Made by a program: the position numbers and the translations under genes. The notes under the pieces are model-generated. The model had not been told where the DNA came from, searched no databases, and was given only the letters and a program-made list of their open reading frames with translations. A stretch of 43,439 nt of DNA from a virus. How positions within the stretch are numbered: the stretch's first letter is position 1; each line of letters begins with the position of its first letter. Location of the stretch: positions 1-43,439 of IMG/VR virus record IMGVR_UViG_3300013296_000006, one strand, 5' to 3'. Positions 7,365 to 43,439 of the stretch are shown here, piece after piece.

Positions 7365-8513
7365 GTGGCCTTCGACAAGCACAACAACTTTGCATATAGC
7401 GTTATAGCTACTGCACCTTCGCCTGCAACTTCTGGTCTTTCTTTGGTGGTTTCGGCTGGTGACGGTACCAAATTTCCAACGACACCGTTCAATGCGACTA
7501 TTTGGCCAGTCAACACACAGCCAACCAAAGCCAATGCTGAAATTGTTCGAGTTACAGCTATATCGACTGATACGTTCACAATCGTTAGAACCCAAGAATC
7601 AACTACGGCACGTACCGTTATTGTGGGTGATCAGATTGCCGCAGGTATTACAGTCAAAACGATAACCGATATAGAAACACCGCTTAAAAATATTATTTTT
7701 AATTATGTTGCTTCTGGTTGTGTGTGGACGGCTGACTCAGCAGGTTTGAGTTTAAACGGTAGTATGACATCAGGAGTAGTAATTATCGCGGGTGTGCCGC
7801 TTACTGTTAATGCAGTTTCGGCCCATGCGTTTACTGCATCAAAAGACACCTATGTTGATTTTGTCGATAGCAAAGATGGTACTGCCAAGATTATTTATAC
7901 TGAAGTTACCAATAATGCTGCCTCGCCTAGCACCTTGTCTGACTCAAGTACATTTAGTGATGTTCTGAATATTCGAAATGCAATTATTGTTAGTGGGCTT
8001 ACAATAGCAGCAGCTACCTCTATAAATCAAGGCCAGGAAACAATGGTTTTGCCAATTGCTTCTTCTATCCCATATGCGGTAACTGACAGTCTCGGTAATC
8101 TTATCAACCCAACTGATCCGTTTCGTAAGTTACTTGGCTTGCGTCAGATCATTGCCGATTTTAGCACTGCATCAACGACTGCCGTTGATGTAACGGGTAT
8201 CAATATGTTCGTAAATATTCCTAGTGGTCGTAAGATCAAAGCTACTATGTCAGGAGCACAAGGCTATAACGCTGGTGGTGGTATCAATAAATACAATTTT
8301 GTAGATGTGACTGCTTCGAATACTACTATCTATAATCCGAACCAAAACCCAGGTAACACCGCAGCCCAACCTCAAGAGATAAGCACTGTTCTGACGCCGC
8401 CTAGTAGCGGTTATCGTAACTATAAATTACAAGCATTTGTGAGCACAGGAACCTTGCATACAGCGAGTGTTAGCCAGTCAACTGCTTTGCAGTTTAGAAT
8501 AGAACTGGAGTAA
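7365..8513 (+). CDS. Tail fibre or minor tail protein (382 aa).
   Basis: GTG start with AGGGGG 6 nt upstream. The N-terminal segment (PSPATSGLSLVVSAGDGTKFPTTPFNATIW...AEIVRVTAISTDTFTIVRTQESTTAR) matches a conserved N-domain I recognise from many phage fibre and minor tail proteins. Confidence 0.6.
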   Translation: MAFDKHNNFAYSVIATAPSPATSGLSLVVSAGDGTKFPTTPFNATIWPVNTQPTKANAEIVRVTAISTDTFTIVRTQESTTARTVIVGDQIAAGITVKTITDIETPLKNIIFNYVASGCVWTADSAGLSLNGSMTSGVVIIAGVPLTVNAVSAHAFTASKDTYVDFVDSKDGTAKIIYTEVTNNAASPSTLSDSSTFSDVLNIRNAIIVSGLTIAAATSINQGQETMVLPIASSIPYAVTDSLGNLINPTDPFRKLLGLRQIIADFSTASTTAVDVTGINMFVNIPSGRKIKATMSGAQGYNAGGGINKYNFVDVTASNTTIYNPNQNPGNTAAQPQEISTVLTPPSSGYRNYKLQAFVSTGTLHTASVSQSTALQFRIELE

Positions 8514-29648: not shown

Positions 29649-29863
29649 TACTTTTCCTCCTGCTTAATTTTGCCAAGTTCTGCATCAAAATCACCTTCAG
29701 TACTGATTACTTTGCTGCTAACAGAACATTGTTGGCTATTTACGCTAAAGGCTGTACCAATAGCTCGTACTAGGTTATGGAACAATTCAGCCTGGAAACC
29801 GTTTGTAGTTGTTCCCTCGATAGTTACCAAGTAGCTGTTCTTAAATTTACGATTTTTACCCAT
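29648..29863 (-). CDS. Hypothetical protein (71 aa).
   Basis: TAATG coupling at both ends. Confidence 0.5.
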   Translation of the reverse strand: MGKNRKFKNSYLVTIEGTTTNGFQAELFHNLVRAIGTAFSVNSQQCSVSSKVISTEGDFDAELGKIKQEEK

Positions 29864-30240
29864 TACTTAGTTCCCTTCTTCTTAGTTGCTGGTACCTTGA
29901 CTAACTTGGTTTCGGCGCTTACCTCTTCCTTGAGCCCCAAATATCCCATAATTGCATCAATCTTTTCGGTTAAACTGAATGATTTGGCCTCCCGCTTAGT
30001 GGTATAGATGGGATCATAGAAAGTTTTGATTATGTCAATATTGAAAAACCTAAAACCACGACGAGTACCAACGTGTTCTTGTAAGTTTTCAATATCTTTT
30101 TCAGTAGAATCAATTTTTTCGTATAGCTTACCAATACCTTTACCGTGTTTTAGCTGTTTGTGCTCAAGTCGTTCAATCCGATGCTCAAGCCTCTCAATAT
30201 CAAATAATAATCCCTGAAGAGTTTCTTTTCGCACAAACAT
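29863..30240 (-). CDS. Hypothetical protein (125 aa).
   Basis: TAATG coupling. Coiled-coil N-terminus. Confidence 0.5.
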   Translation of the reverse strand: MFVRKETLQGLLFDIERLEHRIERLEHKQLKHGKGIGKLYEKIDSTEKDIENLQEHVGTRRGFRFFNIDIIKTFYDPIYTTKREAKSFSLTEKIDAIMGYLGLKEEVSAETKLVKVPATKKKGTK

Positions 30241-31433
30241 TAGAATGCCTCCTTAGTTTCGTTATTTTTACCTTGTGGTAACTCTGCGTGTGCCAAGAGT
30301 GCTTTCTTGGTTTTTTTCATCAACTGGAAGCAGAGAATTACTGCTTTGGCCCATTTCAAACAATCATCAACAGTCAAACCACACTCACTGGCATACACCA
30401 AGCTAAACTCACCATCCTTACGGGCAGATACCACTAGAAGGTCATCTGCGGGCTCGTGGCCCATTTCGCGGCGAATAAGCTCATAGAAAGCATCCTGAAT
30501 GAAATAACTGTAATACACGCCTTCTGGTGCCGCAGCATCGGTATTTACACTAGCATTGCTAGTCTTCCAGTCTGTCGTACAACGAACATGAGTTTTGAGC
30601 TTATCTGTTGTCTCAGTTTGTGTGATCCTGATCCCTTTACCCTGTCTCATTTTGGTAATGATAGTTTCGTAAAGTGGTTTATCCTTATAAATCGGGTGAT
30701 GTTCAACTGGAATCCCTAAATCAGCATCGTAGGTGCCAGGGTAATCATATTCCATAGAGTACAAAATCTCTTCAGCACCGTATAGAACGGGCTTAGTTTC
30801 CAACCACCAAATCTTAAAGCGGCTAAAAGCTTTAGTAGCCATTTCAATATCAGCGGGTGCTTCTTGGAATGCTAAATTACGATCTGCTTCATCGGGGTCA
30901 TCCTCACCAGGTTTAGGAATCGGAAATGCGTCTTTGATAGCCCAGTTATAAGCTTCAGCAATATCAAATTCTTCGCCCTTGATGTAGTGTTCGATGGCAT
31001 CGTGAACGACTGAACCGATATCAGCACCTTTCTTTTGTTTACGTTGCCAGTTTTTACTAGCGGATAGAATAAACGGTAAAGCTTCTTCTTTCGATAGCGG
31101 TGCTAAGCCATCTTTTCCCCATAGAGTACCGCCTCCATTCTTAGCAGAAAAACCAGTCATACGCTCACCCTTTTCATTGGTGAAATCATAGAAGCCAAAT
31201 AGCTCAGACAATGCCATTCCCATAGGCCAGGTCATCAAACCTTTTTTCTCAAGAGTGTCACCAAGAATAGTGGTTACACCAGTTGGCCGAGTAGCCTTAC
31301 CCCAGGCTTTTTTATCAGTTTCGGGTAAATCCCAGTTTTCACGGTGACGAATGTAGTAGCGGTGTGATTTGTCGAGATAATCAAGCTTTATCTTCCCATC
31401 GTACAGAACTTTTGTTATGTCTTTGAATGCCAT
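30240..31433 (-). CDS. PD-(D/E)XK (RecB/Cas4-like) exonuclease.
   Basis: 397 aa. Motifs: GSVVHDAIEHY, YDADLG, TTDWKT (D-x-K) and YFIQDAFY (QxxxY). Confidence 0.65.
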   Translation of the reverse strand: MAFKDITKVLYDGKIKLDYLDKSHRYYIRHRENWDLPETDKKAWGKATRPTGVTTILGDTLEKKGLMTWPMGMALSELFGFYDFTNEKGERMTGFSAKNGGGTLWGKDGLAPLSKEEALPFILSASKNWQRKQKKGADIGSVVHDAIEHYIKGEEFDIAEAYNWAIKDAFPIPKPGEDDPDEADRNLAFQEAPADIEMATKAFSRFKIWWLETKPVLYGAEEILYSMEYDYPGTYDADLGIPVEHHPIYKDKPLYETIITKMRQGKGIRITQTETTDKLKTHVRCTTDWKTSNASVNTDAAAPEGVYYSYFIQDAFYELIRREMGHEPADDLLVVSARKDGEFSLVYASECGLTVDDCLKWAKAVILCFQLMKKTKKALLAHAELPQGKNNETKEAF

Positions 31434-33140: not shown

Positions 33141-34145
33141 CTAAAATAGTAACTGTGGCTGAACCTTCGCAGGCTCCTTACTTTCGAAGGGATCAGCCAT
33201 TTTTATTTCTTCGGCTCCTGGCCAGTTCGACGACACTTCAGATGGGATGCTTGCAGGTAACTTCTTACCAAACAATTCTTCAAAGGCATAATCCTGCACA
33301 GTCTCAACATCGGTGGCTTCCAAAAACTCGCCCCAATCTTTATATTTCGTCGGCACCTGTTTTACTCTGTACGGTAAAATCTCATCCAAAGCCTCACGCA
33401 GCTTGTCGCCTGCAGTATCGTTGTCGCCCGCGTAGACGACCTGTATGCCGTTTTCTTTGCAATACATGGCAAATGCCTTAACTAACTCGCCAGAAGCCGC
33501 TGACGGGGCCGCAATCCATGGCACAGCGCAATATTCAAGCACAGCCGCATCACTCGTGCCTTCCACCAAAAATAATTTGTCGTTATCCAAATTCCAAGTA
33601 CCATACATGGTCGGCTTGGCATCTTTGAGCATAGTAAAGCGGACATCACCCTGCAAATGACGGTATTGCGCAAACGGAATTGAACCCTTGCTAGCACTGA
33701 AATAAGGAATAAAAACACTATGGTTATGTTTACGCCAGCCCATGTCATTGAGCACATCACTGGGTACACCGTGCAAATGAAACTCAGGTAGTAATTCCAT
33801 CTTCTCCCAATCGGCCATAAGATCAAACTGCTTGTATTTGTGCTCAGTCACTTTTTGCTCCCGTCGAATCGAATTATTGGATCGACCCCGTTCGCTATAT
33901 ACAGGCTGTTGTTGATTTTCGCGTAATGAAGGGAAGGCTTTTGTAATGTGGAATCGTCCGCATCCCGCGTGGCAGTTGACAAACCAGTCATCTTTATAGA
34001 TTTGTACCGATGGGTGTTTATCATCATGCATGGGACATTGCGAAAGGAGATAGCGACCCTTATTAAAATATTTGAGTCCCGCGCGGTCCAACTCCATAAG
34101 CACATCATTTTCTGTAAATTTATCTTCCTCATAATTCCCTTTCAT
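33141..34145 (-). CDS. DnaG-like DNA primase (zinc finger plus Toprim).
   Basis: CPMHDDKHPSVQIYKDDWFVNCHAGCG is a CHC2-type zinc finger. Toprim residues appear in LFLVEGTSDA and YAGDNDTAGD. Confidence 0.8.
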   Translation of the reverse strand: MKGNYEEDKFTENDVLMELDRAGLKYFNKGRYLLSQCPMHDDKHPSVQIYKDDWFVNCHAGCGRFHITKAFPSLRENQQQPVYSERGRSNNSIRREQKVTEHKYKQFDLMADWEKMELLPEFHLHGVPSDVLNDMGWRKHNHSVFIPYFSASKGSIPFAQYRHLQGDVRFTMLKDAKPTMYGTWNLDNDKLFLVEGTSDAAVLEYCAVPWIAAPSAASGELVKAFAMYCKENGIQVVYAGDNDTAGDKLREALDEILPYRVKQVPTKYKDWGEFLEATDVETVQDYAFEELFGKKLPASIPSEVSSNWPGAEEIKMADPFESKEPAKVQPQLLF

Positions 34146-34936
34146 ACTATTGGTTCCAACTTACTATCAACCATGAGCATACAGTAGTGAAAGTTTGGCT
34201 TTTTTGTAAAGCGTGATTTCTGCAACTGCAACCGAATGGTATCATCAACATTTTTTTCTTCCGACACCGATATAACTTTGGTGGCAGCTTGTGAAATAGC
34301 ACTTGAGCCCACAATCTGATCCATACCCTTGGCACCAGCTTTTTTGTTCACATGGCTCACCAAAATAATGGTCTTTTTGTTCTGCTTCATTAACTGGTTA
34401 AGCTTCTGCATAAATACTCGTTGCGCAATGTATTCATTTTCCTGTTTAGCCATTTCTGCATTTTCAAAGGCAAATTGCAAGTGATCGAGTAAAATCAACT
34501 CAATACCAGCGTCAAACCAGTCTTGGATATACTTCAGCAGATCGTCGAGACTCCAAGATTTTGTAAGCTCACCTTCAGGCAAGCACCAAACAGTATCGCC
34601 ACTGTTCATGGCTCGATACTCACTCGGAGTTAGGATTTGGGCTAAGCGGTTGCTGACATCGGCCATGTCATCTTCGAGAACCAATAGCCCTACCTTTGTG
34701 CCATTCCTGATAGCGGGCGCTAGAAAATTCAGGGCTACAGTTGACTTACCAACTCCCGTGGGGCCATAGAGCAACACAATTTCATAACCGTTCTTACGAC
34801 CGAAGCCGCCAGCGAAATATTTGTCAAGCACATCCTGACCTGTGCTGTAAAGATCAGTGCGGCCCCAAGTTTTGTTAATTTCCATAGCTTTTTCATAAAA
34901 ATCACCAATGACTGATATCTGTTTTGATAATCCCAT
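34142..34936 (-). CDS. DnaB-like/RecA-fold replicative helicase (264 aa).
   Basis: Walker A LLYGPTGVGKST, Walker B ELILLDHLQ, plus a VSHVNKK segment. ATGA coupling to the primase gene. Confidence 0.7.
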   Translation of the reverse strand: MGLSKQISVIGDFYEKAMEINKTWGRTDLYSTGQDVLDKYFAGGFGRKNGYEIVLLYGPTGVGKSTVALNFLAPAIRNGTKVGLLVLEDDMADVSNRLAQILTPSEYRAMNSGDTVWCLPEGELTKSWSLDDLLKYIQDWFDAGIELILLDHLQFAFENAEMAKQENEYIAQRVFMQKLNQLMKQNKKTIILVSHVNKKAGAKGMDQIVGSSAISQAATKVISVSEEKNVDDTIRLQLQKSRFTKKPNFHYCMLMVDSKLEPIV

Positions 34937-35598
34937 TACACCCCACCCATTCTGCGTCTTACCATTTCATCTTGATTTTCGATAGTTACTGACTGTTTGC
35001 TGCCTAGCGTATCTTTACCAATGGCTAAAAACTTGTCAATCGTCGTGGCCCGTATCAGGTAATCAATCTTAAATTCCTTGACCCGCTCGGAATGCCAGTC
35101 GTCGGCGACGAGGGCGCGGAGTGCTAATTTAATTTCCTCCAAAGTAAAAGCATCAAGAGTTTTCTTAGTACCGCGTTCAGGTAAGGTACGGAAACTACGA
35201 CCTGTAATTTCATTCACCAAAGCTAACAAAGATTTCTGTAACTCCACAAAAGACTTATTATTAGTATTGGTATTATGTTTCTGCTTTTGCAGAAGGGGGG
35301 CTTCTGCTTTTGCGTAAGGGTCTTTGGTTATATCAATACCCCTTAAACCGCCGTCGATAACTCTAGTGGAAATAAAACCTTTGGCTTCAAGCTGCTTAAC
35401 CCAAACGCTAATTCTCGTTGGTTGAACTCCATAAAGCTTCGCAAAATATTTATTAGTCGCCCAACACATCCCAGTCATGTTACAGAGCGCGGTTATTTCT
35501 ACGAATAGTATTTTTGCACTTGCAGAAATGTCAGGATCATAACGAACATCTGCGGGCATGACACCATAATAGGTTGGCCGCTCTAGGCTGTTTTCCAT
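34936..35598 (-). CDS. Replisome organizer or replication-initiation HTH protein (220 aa).
   Basis: The winged-helix-like N-terminus (CWATNKYFAKLYGVQPTRISVWVKQLEAKGFI) is typical of phage replication organizers. Lies immediately upstream of helicase and primase. Confidence 0.55.
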   Translation of the reverse strand: MENSLERPTYYGVMPADVRYDPDISASAKILFVEITALCNMTGMCWATNKYFAKLYGVQPTRISVWVKQLEAKGFISTRVIDGGLRGIDITKDPYAKAEAPLLQKQKHNTNTNNKSFVELQKSLLALVNEITGRSFRTLPERGTKKTLDAFTLEEIKLALRALVADDWHSERVKEFKIDYLIRATTIDKFLAIGKDTLGSKQSVTIENQDEMVRRRMGGV

Positions 35599-35674
35599 TT
35601 TAACCTCTTTCTTTTGGTGCTCTTGACAGCCAGTTGGGGCTTTTGGTAAACTTCAGATAGTTGAAGTTTCTCCT

Positions 35675-35704
35675 AAAAGCCTCTGTTGCAGCAGAGCGCT
35701 TTTT
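35675..35704. terminator. Hairpin with flanking A and T runs (bidirectional terminator or attenuator shape).
   Basis: aaaagc ctctgt tgca gcagag c gctttt. The T-run follows the stem on the + strand; TTTT AGGAG follows it on the - strand. Confidence 0.4.
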
Positions 35705-35733
35705 AATTTGTTCTCTGATAGTTGAAGTCAGTA

Positions 35734-35889
35734 TTAAAAGCATAATTCAAACCTTTTATGTTGTCCAGACGCTATATGTGGTGTGCAATTTACCTGCCAT
35801 GATACTAGTTTTGGTATACCCCAAGCTGCTAACAGATACACTAACGCGGTTAGCATTAGGTAGTACCCAATCCACCAGATATTTTTCAT
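35734..35889 (-). CDS. Small membrane protein (51 aa; below the track cut-off).
   Basis: ATGA overlap with the stop of 35886-36230. MKNIWWIGYYLMLTALVYLLAAWGIPKLV... has one TM segment. Confidence 0.4.
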   Translation of the reverse strand: MKNIWWIGYYLMLTALVYLLAAWGIPKLVSWQVNCTPHIASGQHKRFELCF

Positions 35890-38548: not shown

Positions 38549-38850
38549 TATTTTACCTCCTGATGTATTGGTGCACCTTCGCCATAATCGGCAATGATTT
38601 GTTTGCTATTATCAGCTTTAAAGCCATTTTGCTTTAGAAATTCCTTGATGTGGCGCAAGGTAGTTACGCTATAGGTGTCAAACACCATAGGTTTACCGCC
38701 TTTGATACTAGCCACATGTGTATCGTAGCTCCAAAGTCGTTTGGTTCCGTCTTCGTTGATTTCAATGCGTGCCTTGCCATAAAAGCTGGCACGAGTATCA
38801 TAACGTGGGTGCAGCTCGTAAGTTGCGGGTTCTCCTTGTTGAGTATCCAT
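38548..38850 (-). CDS. Conserved-looking hypothetical protein (100 aa).
   Basis: ATG ORF. The FYGKARIE...LWSYDTHVA...SVTTLRHIKEFLKQNG pattern looks like a recurrent phage or plasmid family, but I cannot name it. Confidence 0.5.
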   Translation of the reverse strand: MDTQQGEPATYELHPRYDTRASFYGKARIEINEDGTKRLWSYDTHVASIKGGKPMVFDTYSVTTLRHIKEFLKQNGFKADNSKQIIADYGEGAPIHQEVK

Positions 38851-38875
38851 AATGATTTTTCCTTAATCTGGTCAA

Positions 38876-38956
38876 TTAGACCGCGAGTGATTTATTTAGT
38901 AATGACTTAATGAATTTGTCTACTGGCGTACTGCCATTAGTCAACTCGTATTCCAT
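38876..38956 (-). CDS. Tiny ORF (26 aa).
   Basis: Minus-strand ATG at 38956. Translates MEYELTNGSTPVDKFIKSLLNKSLAV. Confidence 0.2.
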   Translation of the reverse strand: MEYELTNGSTPVDKFIKSLLNKSLAV

Positions 38957-38959
38957 GAT

Positions 38960-39034
38960 TTACCCCTTGTGAATGATCTTGCGTGGTGCGCGTGATTCAA
39001 TTCGTTTAGTGCTGTAGTGTACAAACATAATCAT
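38960..39034 (-). CDS. Tiny basic ORF (24 aa), the first ORF of the early operon.
   Basis: Perfect AAGGAG 9 nt upstream of the ATG at 39034. Translates MIMFVHYSTKRIESRAPRKIIHKG. Confidence 0.3.
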   Translation of the reverse strand: MIMFVHYSTKRIESRAPRKIIHKG

Positions 39035-39215
39035 TTTATTATGCTCCTTTTAGTGTTTTTGTTTTGGTAGGGTGGCTAGGTTTAACGCCTAGCCATTATT
39101 CCCTGTTAGTTCGAATGGTTGAGCTAGTAGCTTGCTGTTTGTAGTTTAGGGCTTACACCTACTGCTAGCTGTTCCGTTCGATGTGTCGCTTGCCGTGTAA
39201 CAATTGACTGTTTAC

Positions 39216-39244
39216 ATACTATCACGCCATAAGCAGCATGTCAA
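39216..39244 (-). promoter_or_regulatory. Main leftward (early) promoter (TTGACA-17-TAGTAT).
   Basis: Minus strand reads TTGACAtgctgCTTATGGcgtgaTAGTAT. No minus-strand gene lies to its right. Confidence 0.65.
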
Positions 39245-39284
39245 TACCTTTTACATAAGGCTGTGTATAACTCTATTAAAATGC

Positions 39285-39313
39285 TTGTTTTACCTCTGTT
39301 AGTAGCGTATAAT
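39285..39313 (+). promoter_or_regulatory. Rightward promoter (TTGTTT-17-TATAAT).
   Basis: ttgttt at 39285-39290 and tataat at 39308-39313. It diverges from the leftward promoter 40 bp away. Confidence 0.5.
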
Positions 39314-39361
39314 TATAAGTAATAAATCATCACTTAACCATTAACAATTTAGCTTTGTAAC

Positions 39362-39401
39362 GTGTATATCTCGCCACAATCGCGGCAATAATGATATACA
39401 C
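39362..39401. promoter_or_regulatory. 9-bp perfect inverted repeat, GTGTATATC-N22-GATATACAC (operator-like).
   Basis: Arms at 39362-39370 and 39393-39401. It ends 6 nt before the -35 of the promoter at 39408-39435. Confidence 0.45.
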
Positions 39402-39407
39402 ACCGCC

Positions 39408-39435
39408 TTGCTGCCGTTTTTCAGCATGATATAAT
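39408..39435 (+). promoter_or_regulatory. Rightward extended -10 promoter (TTGCTG-16-TGaTATAAT) placed for a leaderless transcript.
   Basis: The -10 TATAAT at 39430-39435 ends 6 nt before the ATG at 39442. No SD site lies between them. Confidence 0.5.
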
Positions 39436-39441
39436 TCACAT

Positions 39442-39822
39442 ATGTCAACAACAGAAAAACAAAAGCGTCAGTATCATAAAATCACACCTGAACAGATTGC
39501 AGGGCTTGAAGCATTGACCGCATTACTTGGCAATGGCTCAGCGGCAGTACGCGCTATGACTCCTTCTGTACGTGATCCAGGAAGGCGAGCATTTAATATA
39601 GCCAAGAAAAGCAAGGGAGAGAGCGCAGAGCTTTTTATAGATAAGCAGTTACAGGCTATTGGAATTGACGCGATAAATAGAATTGGTGAGATTGTTGCAA
39701 GCCCTGATGAAAAAACAGCACTGAAAGCAGCACAATACGCTGTTGATCATATCAGGGGTCAAGCTACTAAAAAGTCTATTTCTTTGGTCGGAAAAGCTAA
39801 TATTCAGAACCTTTTAGATTAG
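39442..39822 (+). CDS. Terminase small subunit-like DNA-binding protein (126 aa).
   Basis: HTH-like N-terminal half (LLGNGSAAVRAMTPSVRDPGRRAFNIAKKS). The C-terminal ALKAAQYAVDHIRGQATKK resembles the conserved helix of Terminase_2-type TerS proteins. Not verified by search. Confidence 0.45.
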   Translation: MSTTEKQKRQYHKITPEQIAGLEALTALLGNGSAAVRAMTPSVRDPGRRAFNIAKKSKGESAELFIDKQLQAIGIDAINRIGEIVASPDEKTALKAAQYAVDHIRGQATKKSISLVGKANIQNLLD

Positions 39823-39850
39823 ACGCACGTACAGCCGTTTTAAAGCGTTT

Positions 39851-39998
39851 TTAGCGTAACAGCCGTACTTTCTTTGGTGCTTAGCGTAACAGTACAGTCG
39901 CACACTATTCATTCTACGACACTGCTATCAGGGGTGATAGCGTAACAGTCTTAGCGTAACAGTTCCCTACGCTATATATGGGGTGGTGTTACGCTAAC
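39851..39998. repeat. Left cluster of the TTAGCGTAACA(G) motif: four forward copies and one inverted copy.
   Basis: Forward copies at 39851-39862, 39881-39892, 39937-39948 (ATAGCGTAACAG) and 39951-39962. Inverted copy TGTTACGCTAAC at 39987-39998. Confidence 0.9.
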
Positions 39999-40152
39999 TT
40001 ATGCCATCATTGCAAGGTTAGAGTTTGATGGCTGGGTATCATTGACGGCGTTTCAAAACGGCATGGGGGTACACGACGACTTGTGGTGCAGCTTGACAGG
40101 CAGTTTTATGAACGTAGTGAGCAGTTACCCTACCCCCATCCTCTCTTCGACC

Positions 40153-40185
40153 TATAAAAATTTTCCAGTATATTTTTTAAAACAC
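40153..40185. other. AT-rich core between the two motif clusters.
   Basis: tataaaaattttccagtatattttttaaaacac. Confidence 0.6.
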
Positions 40186-40368
40186 TACCTCTTATATACC
40201 TCTATGAGCCATGTACAGCCCGTCTGATAGACTTTAGACAGGCAAGTGGCATCGACTACAGCTACAGCCCAGTAACAGCGGTATGGGCGCGGATTCCTTT
40301 TAAATAAGTCGCCGAACGTGCAATACGGCATCCCCAACTATGACTCGGATCAAATACGTGTACCGTTT

Positions 40369-40412
40369 TGTTACGCTAACTTGTTTTTGTTACGCTAACT
40401 TGTTACGCTAAC
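40369..40412. repeat. Right cluster: three tandem inverted-orientation copies (TTGTTACGCTAACTT).
   Basis: Copies at 40369-40380, 40388-40399 and 40401-40412. The last ends 3 nt before the ATG at 40416. Confidence 0.9.
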
Positions 40413-40415
40413 TTC

Positions 40416-40607
40416 ATGGCAGAAATAAAAACAGAAATGGATTTTTTATTAGAAATGGAGTGGCGCTTGCAATTGGACTTGAATCAGGTTCAGCAGCGTA
40501 TCGGTGAGTTATTAGCAACTAAAGAGGTTGAGTTGGGTGAAGAGGTACACGCCATGCGCCGCGCCCGCTTTTCGGTAGTACCTGATCTACCAGATGGAGT
40601 CGCATGA
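40416..40607 (+). CDS. Small coiled-coil protein (63 aa).
   Basis: ATG ORF with ATGA coupling to the RecA-like gene. Confidence 0.5.
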   Translation: MAEIKTEMDFLLEMEWRLQLDLNQVQQRIGELLATKEVELGEEVHAMRRARFSVVPDLPDGVA

Positions 40608-41590
40608 AAAAGATTTGTGAAAACTGTAAAGAGGAGTTTGACGCAAAGCGGAAGACGGCTAAGTATTGTTCGTCGAAATGCCGTGTTGAAGCGGCACGGG
40701 GTAGTGATGTGTCCGATCTGCAGCCAGGAATGCTTGAGAGCAAAAATTCAAAGAGCAAGGTAGGTGCAACTCCTACGTCGGACTCCAAACCGTATGATCG
40801 TGAGAAAAACTTACAGGCGTTTATAAAAATGGGGGTAGCGAAAGTTGAGTGGATTCCTACGGGTATGCCCGACTTTGACGCGCTGACTATGATCCCACGA
40901 GGCCGTATAACGCAAATACAGGGCCGCTACGGTGCGGGAAAGACTACGTTGTGTCTGAACATGATTAAAGGCTTAAAAGGCCGCAAAGTGCTTTATATTG
41001 ACGCAGAAGCAGCTCTCAATCCACATCTTTTGGTGGATTTAGAAATTGAGGCCAAGAATTTTACGCTTTACAACGAGTCGAATTATATCGAGGATATCAG
41101 TGAAGTTATTAGGGTCGGCGCTAAAAACGGCCAGTACGATATTATCGTGCTCGATTCGGTGCCGATGACGAGCACCAAAACTATAGAAGCTAGTGATATA
41201 ACCAGTAAGAACATCGGTCAAAAAGCTTTTATCATTCATAAGCTAGTCGAGTTAATCGCCATGGATTTAAAGCGGACCAATACGGCTATGGTGTTTATTA
41301 ACCAGGTCCGCGACGTAATCGGTACGCCGTACCCTGATACCTACACGCCTGGCGGTACGGGTATACCCTTCCAAGCCAGTCTTATTGTGCAACTGCGGTC
41401 CGCGAAGTCATGGCGCTTTCCGCAAGCTAAAAAAGGTAGCAAATCCCATGTCTTTTTAGGCCAAGAAGTTGAAGCTACGATTATAAAATCTAAGGTGAAT
41501 AATCCTGGCCGCGTTGCAAAATTCAAACTGTTCTACCCTAACCCAACGGAACTACCGTTAGAGGCCATCGACACTAAAGAGGACTTCTAA
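40604..41590 (+). CDS. Zinc-ribbon plus RecA-like recombinase/ATPase (328 aa).
   Basis: N-terminal CENCKEEFDAKRKTAKYCSSKCR. The core matches RecA: IPTGMPDFDALT..IPRGRITQIQGRYGAGKTTLCL (Walker A), IIVLDSV (Walker B), FINQVRDVIGTPYPDTYTPGGTGIPFQASLIVQLR. Confidence 0.75.
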   Translation: MKKICENCKEEFDAKRKTAKYCSSKCRVEAARGSDVSDLQPGMLESKNSKSKVGATPTSDSKPYDREKNLQAFIKMGVAKVEWIPTGMPDFDALTMIPRGRITQIQGRYGAGKTTLCLNMIKGLKGRKVLYIDAEAALNPHLLVDLEIEAKNFTLYNESNYIEDISEVIRVGAKNGQYDIIVLDSVPMTSTKTIEASDITSKNIGQKAFIIHKLVELIAMDLKRTNTAMVFINQVRDVIGTPYPDTYTPGGTGIPFQASLIVQLRSAKSWRFPQAKKGSKSHVFLGQEVEATIIKSKVNNPGRVAKFKLFYPNPTELPLEAIDTKEDF

Positions 41591-41904
41591 TGCCAAAGGG
41601 TATCCCCAAAGATATTACCGAAGCCAAGCGGGTGAATGTGTACTTACGGCCGCCGCAGCTTAAAACGCGTAAGCTGATTAGCAATTACTCGGCTTTCGTA
41701 CAAATCGCTACTGATAATGCCGCCGATATCATGGCATGGGCTATACTTAAAAAAGTAGACCCGAAAAAATATCATCCACTACACCAGTTAGATGAACCAG
41801 GACTAGTTGATGAATTTAACAAAAAATTCCCTGCTGATCCGCTAATACCAAAAGGCAAAAAATGGCCCAAGAACTCTCAGAAACTACCCGACGTACTATT
41901 CTAA
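41590..41904 (+). CDS. Hypothetical protein (104 aa), possibly RHH-like DNA-binding.
   Basis: TAATG coupling. KRVNVYLRPPQLKTRKLISNYSAFVQIA looks like a beta-strand plus helix. Overlaps the terL start by 43 nt. Confidence 0.45.
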   Translation: MPKGIPKDITEAKRVNVYLRPPQLKTRKLISNYSAFVQIATDNAADIMAWAILKKVDPKKYHPLHQLDEPGLVDEFNKKFPADPLIPKGKKWPKNSQKLPDVLF

Positions 41905-43439
41905 GCCGCATCCCTAACTACACCCAGTTACTTGAAGAGGATGCGGTTAATGCCGTCATTCGTGTTATTGCCGACGACTTCGAAATTTATACTGAACGTA
42001 ACCTGATGATCGAAGATAAAGACACGGGTGAGATCATTCCGTTTGTCTTTAACTGGGCGCAGCGTAAGCTTGTAGAGCTTGTTTTGGCGGATATCGCGGC
42101 TGGGGTGCCAGTCCGCTACATTATCTTAAAAGCGCGACAGATGGGGCTCAGTACTGTCATTGAGGCTCTTGGCTTTTGGTGGACGACTACCCACCGCAAC
42201 GTCAAGACGGTGATTATCGCCCATGAAACAGAGGCCGTTGACACGCTCTATGACATGTTCAAACGCTATTTTGATAACTGCCGCTTAGAGTTCCAGCCGT
42301 CTAGGAAGTACAACAACAAAAAGCAGCTTGTGTTTGACGTTGAGGATAAAATTAAGGAAGAGTACAAGGAACGCGGTGAGCGCAGCCCAGGGCTCGGCTC
42401 CAGTATTAAAACAATGGTGGCCAAAGAGGGTAAGGGTCGTTCACAGAACATTAAGTTTTTGCACGGTTCAGAGGTTGCCTTTTGGGAAGCTAAAGCCGAC
42501 TTCGTTTCGGCATCCATGCAGGCCGTACCATTAGCCCCTAATACCTTCGTCTTTTTGGAGTCCACCGCCAATGGTGTAGGTGGGTTCTTTTATAAAAGTT
42601 GGTTCAATGCTAAAAAGGGTAAATCTAACTTACGGGCTATTTTCTTCGCCTGGCATGAGCACAACGCCTATGAATTACCAGCACCGAAAACGGGGCTCAG
42701 TTATTACGATGATGAAGAGGCCAAGCTACTGGAGCTGTTTGAAAAGAAGGGTTATGAGCGTTGGCGTTGGGATCGCAAAATTATGTGGCGGCGCGAGAAA
42801 AAGAAGGAGTTTTTGGACGATCCTAAAAAGTTCTACCAGGAATACCCATCTACCGATATGGAAGCATTTTTGGCATCAGGCCGACCGAAATTCGACATGG
42901 ATATGCTGGTTAAAATGTGGCAGTATGCCGATGATCACCCTAGCCACAAGTATGGCCAGATAGTGCCGAATCCTGACCCCGTAGGCCGAGACCGCTACAT
43001 TTTCGAAGAGGTACCTGTCGCTATTGAAGGTACGGACCCGACACCACTAAAACTGTGGGAATTACCTATAAAGCGGCAACCTGGTATTCGCCAGGAGGCT
43101 ATGAAGTACGCTATCGGTGTGGATGTTTCCGAAGGTAAATTGAATAAAGAATCTGAGAAAAAAGAAAATGACTACTCGGTTATTGATGTGATTCGTGTCG
43201 ATAATTGGCAGACCGTTGCTCGTTGGCGCGGCCACATTGACCCTGATCTTTTAGGGCAGCAAGTGTATATGCTTGGCCGATTCTACAATGATGCTTTGGT
43301 GGGCGTTGAGGTTAATAACCACGGCCTGACGACTGTACAGAGTTTGCGTAACAAGTCGTACCCCAATTTGTACATGCGCGAAACTAATGAAGAGAATCGC
43401 TTTCAAGAGCGAACTGCAGTCATGGGTTGGCGCACTGAC
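41862..43439 (+). CDS. terL: Terminase large subunit, N-terminal and central part. It runs off the window end and continues at 124-510 after the overlap is removed.
   Basis: ATG at 41862, with no stop in frame to the window end. Motifs seen: ILKARQMGLST (Walker A-like), FLHGSEVAFW, VFLESTANGVGG, EYPSTDMEAF. Nuclease-type acidic motifs IGVDVSEG and DYSVIDV are present. Confidence 0.9.
   Translation, partial: MAQELSETTRRTILSRIPNYTQLLEEDAVNAVIRVIADDFEIYTERNLMIEDKDTGEIIPFVFNWAQRKLVELVLADIAAGVPVRYIILKARQMGLSTVIEALGFWWTTTHRNVKTVIIAHETEAVDTLYDMFKRYFDNCRLEFQPSRKYNNKKQLVFDVEDKIKEEYKERGERSPGLGSSIKTMVAKEGKGRSQNIKFLHGSEVAFWEAKADFVSASMQAVPLAPNTFVFLESTANGVGGFFYKSWFNAKKGKSNLRAIFFAWHEHNAYELPAPKTGLSYYDDEEAKLLELFEKKGYERWRWDRKIMWRREKKKEFLDDPKKFYQEYPSTDMEAFLASGRPKFDMDMLVKMWQYADDHPSHKYGQIVPNPDPVGRDRYIFEEVPVAIEGTDPTPLKLWELPIKRQPGIRQEAMKYAIGVDVSEGKLNKESEKKENDYSVIDVIRVDNWQTVARWRGHIDPDLLGQQVYMLGRFYNDALVGVEVNNHGLTTVQSLRNKSYPNLYMRETNEENRFQERTAVMGWRTD
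43317..43439. repeat. Terminal direct repeat, copy B (identical to 1-123).
   Basis: Exact 123-nt identity with the window start. The reading frame of the ORF starting at 41862 continues seamlessly into position 1. Confidence 0.95.

Follow-up and report, generated by a model that had tools for sequence, protein, structure and literature searches.

The window analyzed here is a 43,439-nucleotide stretch of viral DNA, positions 1 to 43,439 of IMG/VR record IMGVR_UViG_3300013296_000006. Downstream of its small-terminase gene (terS), on the way to its large-terminase gene (terL), it carries eight copies of an 11-mer, TTAGCGTAACA, set as two clusters around a noncoding core. Computation shows the sites, their conservation, and their link both to the terS-terL interval and to a small zinc module with four cysteine ligands (Cys4), which in the window forms the N terminus of a RecA-like protein encoded just downstream. 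The analysis supports an array that is nonrandom and, judging from its sequence, functional. We give an even chance to the reading that the array is a nucleoprotein site of the packaging region that tethers the RecA fusion, with autoregulation of the operon as a probable further effect.

The 11-mer array and its recurrence

A motif scan recovered the eight copies that a first-pass annotation of this DNA had described. Seven are exact, three on the plus strand (39851, 39881, and 39951) and four on the minus strand (39987, 40369, 40388, and 40401), and the eighth, ATAGCGTAACA, is a plus-strand copy with one mismatch at 39937. They delimit three elements.

39851 to 39997, left cluster: four forward sites (39851, 39881, 39937, 39951) and one reverse site (39987), from the motif scan
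39998 to 40368, no strand assigned: noncoding core of about 370 bp, with an AT-rich tract at about 40140 to 40185 and invariant blocks
40369 to 40411, minus strand, right cluster: reverse sites 40369, 40388, and 40401, spaced by 19 and 13

With up to one mismatch allowed, the whole window holds 10 matches against 1.13 expected. None of 100 shuffled sequences reached 10, the largest shuffle count being 3, which bears out the annotation's view that the arrangement was too ordered for chance. All eight array copies are confined to the gap between terS and a 63-amino-acid (63-aa) open reading frame (ORF), at 39823 to 40415. Outside this gap, at the same tolerance, TTTGCGTAACA at 27 and 43343 is a single terL-internal site that the 123-bp overlap of the window's ends doubles; the array is thus found at this one place, and the annotation had likewise noticed the motif nowhere else. 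The 9-mer TAGCGTAAC occurs additionally at 38663 on the minus strand.

The first array site begins 29 bp past the terS stop codon. The final one ends at 40411, and the ATG of the 63-aa ORF follows 4 nt further, at 40416, so that the last copies do abut a start codon; the AT-rich stretch reported between the clusters is likewise real (GC content of 0.28 over 40140 to 40199). The four forward copies are distributed over three different reading frames. Site spacings group at 12 to 13, 17 to 23, and 30 to 34 bp, with a helical phasing too unclean to interpret. The gap had also been called the largest noncoding element of the genome; at 593 bp it is in a near tie with the 591 bp at 38851 to 39441. 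A tRNA scan and Rfam searches of the region, at gathering and permissive thresholds, gave no match, and neither did a nucleotide search of the region against 50,697 GenBank phages.

Does the array occur in other phages? We searched IMG/VR contigs with a pattern of two 11-mer copies 1 to 30 nt apart (22 specified bases), and 25 contigs besides the window matched. About 11 of these are syntenic relatives with 27 to 65% protein identity, whose arrays fall between terS and the zinc-finger-RecA gene; an additional single copy often precedes terS. The presence of the motif at the same position in syntenic relatives, which the first-pass annotation had set as a test, was therefore observed. In two relatives (L049 and L050; array loci elsewhere carry L numbers), sites lie at +28, +59/60, and, for the third, +116/+127 from the terS stop codon, the earlier offsets approximating those of the window's first two sites. 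The remaining array contigs come from unrelated phages, where the array lies in or beside an ORF of 64 to 161 aa whose match to the RecA-like protein is confined to residues 1 to 40, the part that holds the zinc module.

Some 12 independent lineages, spanning at least four TerL families, carry the array between terS and terL or adjacent to terL, always within or alongside a gene for the same CxxC-x13-CSxxC module. The next ORF upstream encodes a PHROG small terminase in L006, L013, L017, L025, and L027; in L009 its product is homologous to the window's TerS, and in L011 it is TerL. TerL follows zero to six small genes downstream and is of the GpA, Terminase_6N, Terminase_6C, or Terminase_3 type or bears an intein. 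The zinc-finger gene overlaps terS by 4 nt in L017 and L024, and overlap or abutment is seen in several lineages. The intein-bearing TerL is at L007:4571-7057, where the Pfam Intein_splicing match falls below cutoff (31.5 bits against 35.8).

A comparison of 99 sites (about 25 loci) shows conservation of (T)TAGCGTAACA alone and none in the flanks. The first-pass annotation had seen a partial palindrome, GTTAnnnTAAC, in each site and took it as a sign of a dimeric binding protein. The palindrome holds for the reverse copies of the window but not as a general feature of the sites: the G at position -1 that it needs is present in 22 of 59 noncoding sites, and the argument for a dimer is likewise unsupported. 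The site is asymmetric, and the variant motifs of relatives (see below) are also nonpalindromic.

In nine zinc-finger ORFs the array lies within the coding sequence. Preceded by a G, TTAGCGTAACA translates as Val-Ser-Val-Thr, and in these ORFs the array stands in frame as xSVT, beginning at nt +91 to +97. Without exception, the 30 units spell Ser, Val, and Thr as AGC, GTA, and ACA; outside the array, the same ORFs use AGC for 28% of Ser, GTA for 31% of Val, and ACA for 40% of Thr. Since the xSVT repeats lack synonymous variation, the constraint is on the DNA, and these computed codon counts show selection at the DNA level in the coding arrays. The L009 array is embedded antisense, translating as TVTL, and in L010, L023, and the window the array lies outside the zinc-finger gene, just upstream. 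A homolog search with one small zinc-finger protein added 14 database homologs, none of them named, that combine a zinc finger with an xSVT linker. The C-terminal partners of the module comprise at least four unrelated domains, and most carriers of both module and array have no RecA domain; the C-terminal domains of the small zinc-finger proteins gave no PHROG match.

The zinc module and the motif classes

Which protein reads the sites? The first-pass annotation had named the TerS-like protein (39442 to 39822) as a binder. Among close relatives, which were located by way of TerS and RecA homologs and keep the window's layout, the motif itself takes several forms.

Motif A, TTAGCGTAACA: L049 and L050, close relatives, layout kept
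Motif B, TTATCTCGGACA: L051, layout kept
Motif C, TTATCTGTGACA: L055, layout kept
Motif D, TAAGTGTGACA: L056 to L059, layout kept
Variant TTAGCGTAAAT: GenBank MW202692.1 (L054), 29856 to 30321, array between terS and recA

The read sets SRR29078256 and SRR29078209 contain L049 to L051. Several database ORFs that overlie such arrays are probably spurious, among them three annotated hypothetical ORFs in MW202692.1. Scans of viral contigs gave no match for motif B and two for motif D, both in 43-kb contigs (L059 and L060); L059 is of the same zinc-finger-RecA lineage, and L060 is too short for assignment. Only motif A is widespread in viral contigs.

We aligned 11 motif-A loci with 5 non-A loci, the latter from about three lineages. 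Residue 28 of the module, which follows a C-R pair and lies on the predicted helix, is V, L, or Q in 11 of 11 motif-A loci and K in 5 of 5 non-A loci. Residue 18 is T with motif A and D with the other motifs, with one exception (L021). Every small zinc-finger protein that accompanies motif A has V, M, or T at the position of residue 28. No TerS column separated the motif classes in the same comparison of loci. The TerS of the window shares 73% identity with its counterpart in L051 (motif B) and 70% with the one in L058 (motif D), values close to the 75% found for L049 and L050 and above the 27 to 49% found for more distant motif-A loci. Its RecA core is 89% identical to that of L058 and 83% to that of L051 despite their other motifs. 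Because a residue of the zinc module switches with the motif and no TerS position does, TerS was rejected as the reader of the 11-mer in favor of the zinc finger. From this co-variation and association we infer that the module is very probably what reads the 11-mer.

An AlphaFold2 (AF2) model of the module has a predicted local distance difference test (pLDDT) score of 95 and consists of a β-hairpin and a helix at residues 24 to 34. Its four ligands (C5, C8, C22, and C26), knuckle, and placement of the helix N terminus are those of a treble-clef or zinc-ribbon fold. No Pfam family reaches its cutoff on the module, which is contained in PHROGs 6975 and 2862 and in the HNH-endonuclease PHROGs 1271 and 15471. 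Within the RecA family the ligands vary among CxxC...CSxxC, CxxD...FCSxKC (the commonest), and CxxPxC...FHxxxC, and exact motif-A arrays occur with each of the three.

The core between the clusters has a different history. When the window, L049, L050, and L051 were aligned, mean column identity over the core was 69%, with invariant runs of up to 13 nt. Its invariant blocks are GGGGTACAC at 40066, ATGAACGTAGTGA at 40108, GTTACCCTACCCC at 40124, GAACGTGCAATACGG at 40314, and ACGTGT at about 40355. L058, whose arrays have motif D, retains all of these blocks, and L020 retains two. Since the core is kept where the array motif differs, it evolves with the backbone, TerS included, and the arrays evolve with the zinc finger. 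The core is a candidate for a pac or cleavage region recognized by TerS, or for a promoter plus leader. An ORF at 40042 to 40227 is broken by nontriplet indels in relatives, so it is not a gene and the gap is noncoding. An RNA structure in the core found no support: 14 predicted pairs showed no compensatory change, and there was no Rfam match and no covariation. The core also holds several GAACGT/ACGTG-like repeats. The first-pass annotation had noted neither its conservation nor the zinc module nor the coding xSVT arrays of other phages.

Gene neighborhood and readings of the array

The gene order around the array is terS, the gap, the 63-aa ORF, the zinc-finger-RecA gene, a 104-aa ORF, terL, and an SU10-type portal gene. 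The features are as follows.

39442 to 39822, plus strand: terS, 126 aa, first gene of the rightward operon, with a transitive profile match to small terminases
40416 to 40607, plus strand: 63-aa ORF, beginning 4 nt after the last site, without a Shine-Dalgarno sequence
40604 to 40705, plus strand: Cys4 zinc module of the RecA-like protein, residues 1 to 34 (C5, C8, C22, C26)
40706 to 41590, plus strand: disordered linker (residues 35 to 63) and RecA core (residues 64 to 318), from Pfam and Foldseek
41590 to 41904, plus strand: 104-aa ORF, overlapping the terL start and kept in all syntenic relatives
41862 to 43439, resuming at 124 and ending at 510, plus strand: terL, 654 aa, spanning the assembly junction

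Positions 1 to 123 and 43317 to 43439 are an identical 123-bp repeat, which shows the window to be a circular assembly with a genome length of 43,316 bp. Because terL crosses the ends of this circular assembly, the ORF list lacked it and showed spurious pieces at 28 to 510 and 42580 to 42963. Contig break points are scattered among relatives of 42 to 46 kb, which fits permuted or circular genomes and headful packaging. Neither the 63-aa nor the 104-aa ORF matched any family, and the former is not homologous to its positional counterparts in relatives.

The upstream gene had been called terS-like. Direct Pfam and PHROG scans of its product gave no match, hhalign against four TerS ORFs was negative, and the structural route failed as well (a poor AF2 model with a pLDDT of 64; Foldseek and a PDB hmmsearch negative). 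We then relied on a transitive test, in which a profile built from 31 homologs retrieved 75 relatives, of which the 49 most distant were scanned. Terminase_2 (PF03592) was matched by 21 of the 49 (best E value, 4e-16) and phrog_51 by 20; the small-terminase PHROGs phrog_2538 and phrog_2606 were matched by 9 and 8. By this profile route, the product of 39442 to 39822 is probably a Terminase_2-type small terminase, as proposed.

The downstream call of a RecA-like protein was equally sound. The 328-aa protein scores 103.9 bits against PF00154 (cutoff, 27) over model positions 28 to 258 of 262. Its P loop, GAGKT, is at residues 110 to 114, with G112, K113, and T114 invariant across 67 homologs. 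The AF2 model has a pLDDT of 89, and the top 50 of 50 Foldseek PDB matches are bacterial RecA proteins (best E value, 1.6e-23). By family match and predicted fold, then, the fused effector is a genuine RecA recombinase.

The leftward arm encodes an O-like/DnaD-like initiator, a DnaB-like helicase, and a primase (33141 to 35598), together with an exonuclease. The initiator (34936 to 35598, minus strand) matches phrog_19658 with an E value of 6e-21. Two tandem 19-nt repeats (TTCTGCTTTTGCnnAAGGG) lie inside its gene at 35279 to 35320, and two 28-nt repeats lie in the noncoding stretch beside it at 35653 to 35741; both sets are candidate iterons of the actual origin. A homolog of the N-terminal domain of this initiator (51% identity) is encoded at L009:1906-2652, inside the packaging module and directly after the zinc-finger gene and array.

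How might such an array work? We propose that the eight copies serve as docking sites for residues 1 to 34 of the RecA-type protein encoded 200 bp downstream, with one zinc module per asymmetric 11-bp site. The two convergent clusters around the core, placed after terS, would then give rise to a nucleoprotein complex where the packaging module begins. This complex would belong to the region in which packaging starts, comparable to cosB or pacL/pacR, and would tether RecA on both sides of the expected site of terminase action. Because the right cluster covers the start of the downstream operon, its occupancy would probably feed back on expression. That the module physically binds the sites, where the packaging cut falls, and how RecA acts there are what we infer from the arrangement. 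A cluster of repeated sites adjoins the small-terminase gene within the packaging module in the window and likewise in about 12 lineages. Three roles had been suggested for the array at the outset (packaging recognition, replication origin, and operator); the packaging-linked one fits best, without TerS as the reader.

Cultured actinophages offer an analogue beside a known genome end. Mycobacterium phage Kevin1 (42 kb) is a cos phage, its ends being taken as recorded in its linear GenBank record. Its gp1 (phrog_6975) combines a module of the same zinc family with a helical C-terminal domain, and gene 1 overlaps terL and starts 55 bp from the left, or cos, end. A phrog_6975-type module gene is gene 1 in 78 actinophage records. 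The 8-mer AGCAAACA occurs four times in Kevin1 against 0.49 expected, with all copies within 240 bp across cos (L061 41809-41886 and 47-75) and one abutting the gene 1 ATG. Gene 1 is annotated as hypothetical in the Kevin1 record, and no TerS is annotated. Gordonia phage Eyre has repeats of its own flanking cos.

Perhaps the array is simply an autoregulatory operator? Here the zinc-finger protein would bind the right cluster over its own operon (63-aa ORF, RecA, 104-aa ORF, terL, and the portal gene onward), the left cluster, some 400 bp off, would strengthen repression by looping, and the packaging neighborhood would reflect gene-dosage control. This is the strongest rival, because the last site lies exactly 4 nt before the ATG in many lineages. 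The junction TGTTACGCTAA-N4-ATG, without a Shine-Dalgarno sequence, occurs at at least 10 loci before at least six unrelated ORF families (window 40401 to 40418, L005, L009, L010, L015, L028, L038, L039, L049, and L050). It precedes the zinc-finger genes themselves in L009 and L010, and in L023 with N5. Read as TGn-TAnnnT, 6 nt, and A(+1)TG, it has the extended -10 geometry of a leaderless transcript (the site giving TGn-TAcgcT). Perfect extended -10 elements (TGATATAAT and TGCTATACT) stand between reverse sites in L051 and L055, and at the motif C and D loci the last site lies 11 to 20 nt before a Shine-Dalgarno sequence. Specificity switching among close relatives is, moreover, typical of repressor-operator pairs. 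However, nine lineages have the array inside the coding sequence, past the start codon and in the opposite direction. The constant terS-terL placement and the 4-nt terS overlaps of L017 and L024 would be unexpected for a generic regulator, and in the right cluster of the window itself a consensus scan detected no strong sigma-70 promoter. A pure operator is a serious possibility, albeit one that we consider unlikely. A promoter-family reading was rejected because the motif is found nowhere else in the genome. Lambda cosB-Nu1 and SPP1 pacL are arrangements in which packaging and operator-type readings coexist, and by analogy with them the two readings are mutually compatible here.

We also considered whether the array might be a RecA loading site that starts recombination-dependent replication or concatemer formation, apart from terminase recognition. 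The fused effector is a true RecA by the matches above, the convergent sites around an AT-rich core would suit symmetric loading, and the phage encodes an exonuclease besides. Most carriers of module and array, however, have other C-terminal domains in place of RecA, and such a role leaves both the terS-terL position in those phages and the site-N4-ATG junction unexplained. We regard it as improbable.

The first-pass annotation had further raised an iteron-type primary origin, with the repeats flanking an unwinding element. Direct and inverted repeats do surround an AT-rich tract, and sites inside the binder's gene recall the origin of lambda, whose iterons lie inside gene O. Yet the window has a separate O-like initiator, helicase, and primase with repeats of their own, whereas the array-adjacent binder is a RecA. 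Arrays in unrelated phages sit within packaging modules, and GC skew turns at the divergent gene boundary rather than specifically at the arrays. With an O-like initiator and the repeats that go with it 4 kb away, a primary origin at the array is very unlikely.

Could the clusters instead be the ends of a small nonautonomous mobile element, as inverted transposase sites are in Tn7 or Mu? The sites are dispersed on one side, tightly packed on the other, and inverted, and the Bacteroidota metagenome-assembled genome UBA1935 has three copies of a motif-bearing repeated element. Against this, the array keeps its position in relatives with as little as 40 to 50% protein identity, and it is the interior that is conserved, whereas the motifs at the ends switch. 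A transposase is absent, and in many lineages the arrays lie inside genes and have a single orientation. The chance that this explanation is right seems close to negligible. The UBA1935 element emerged from a scan of 185,579 species genomes that gave 20 matches, mostly chance (the 11-mer within longer tandem units) or misbinned phage contigs, and yielded no host assignment. Its copies, at L041:3434-3490 and L045:1071-1119 and 7445-7493, each have two exact direct motifs with a TTGCGTAACA variant between them and one inverted copy, within identical flanks; the element is possibly mobile or else a repeated part of a prophage.

Several observations weigh against the packaging-linked reading that we prefer. 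In the window's lineage the module occurs only on a RecA recombinase, which would be a strange companion for a terminase. A canonical TerS with its own DNA-binding domain could itself recognize pac, perhaps in the core. The site-N4-ATG junction, like the extended -10 elements of L051 and L055, speaks for a transcriptional operator. Co-variation was seen in a small sample whose members are partly nonindependent (5 non-A loci from about three lineages, with L021 as an exception), and the orientation of the sites relative to the packaging operon varies between lineages. One viral locus does not fit: at L018:7554-7983 the 11-mer lies within a longer unit, GAATTACRTTAGCGTWACATC, and no zinc-module ORF was detected near that array. 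Conversely, L001 and L002 have the module and no array in the 0.6 to 1.1 kb of upstream sequence that the analysis covered. Loss of the first CxxC was considered as the reason for array loss in these two and rejected, as CxxD and CxxPxC...H variants carry exact arrays.

Known systems and significance

The array has its closest counterparts among known packaging sites. Like the window, the lambda cosB R sites (bound by gpNu1), the SPP1 pacL and pacR sites (G1P), and the P1 pac hexamers (four plus three; PacA) have clustered short sites that flank a core by or in the small-terminase gene, and the last site lies near the start of the downstream packaging gene. Their reader is the helix-turn-helix of TerS, whereas the probable reader in the window is a Cys4 module fused to RecA, and elsewhere to other domains. 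The coding arrays also resemble lambda ori in gene O and SPP1 oriL in gene 38, where the sites lie in frame in the linker of the binder's gene and where site and domain specificity diversify together, as they do here. Those systems act in replication, whereas the window has a packaging context, a separate initiator, and sites outside the gene. The incC repeats of P1 RepA and ParR/parC-type systems resemble the window in having direct repeats at what would here be the promoter or start of the binder's operon, and a second, distant cluster; the window, in contrast, has no Rep or Par protein, and its binder would be a RecA fusion or, in other phages, a small zinc protein.

RadA/Sms and T7 gp4 share the domain order, with a Cys4 zinc domain at the N terminus ahead of a RecA-fold ATPase. 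The core in the window is, however, a bacterial RecA proper rather than a hexameric helicase of the DnaB or Sms type, Lon and primase domains are absent, and, unlike theirs, its module appears to read an 11-bp duplex site. Gene 1 of Cluster N and related actinophages (phrog_6975, as in Kevin1 gp1) places a module of the same family at the TerS position by cos with a clustered motif. These proteins, annotated as hypothetical, differ in their motif (AGCAAACA) and have a helical C-terminal domain and no RecA. We conclude that the arrangement is a variant of known site-array systems (cosB/pac boxes, iterons, and operators) with an unusual reader and effector.

Accounts of how tailed phages recognize their packaging sites center, to our knowledge, almost wholly on small terminases with a helix-turn-helix. 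In a 2022 review, zinc fingers come up for the herpesvirus terminase alone. Our literature search found no paper with this motif, with a zinc-module partner of a phage terminase, or with such a zinc-finger-RecA fusion.

More tentatively still, and with considerable doubt that it will hold, we suggest that the 34-residue zinc module and its own 11-bp sites form a portable address tag that brings interchangeable effectors to the packaging-initiation region of unrelated phages. In the window, the tag would place a sequence-targeted RecA on both flanks of the terminase cut and so couple packaging initiation to recombination or end protection. If this is true, phages of at least four TerL families would share a second, modular means by which the packaging region is marked. 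The module appears to carry a one- or two-residue specificity switch (V28/K and T18/D against four motif classes), and rapid co-switching of finger and site would, on the same premise, prevent cross-talk between co-infecting relatives. Repeats of the xSVT kind in small ORFs could flag pac-proximal regions of metagenomic phages. A natural sequence-tethered RecA, if that is what the fusion is, would be of interest both for the mechanism of recombination and as a tool.

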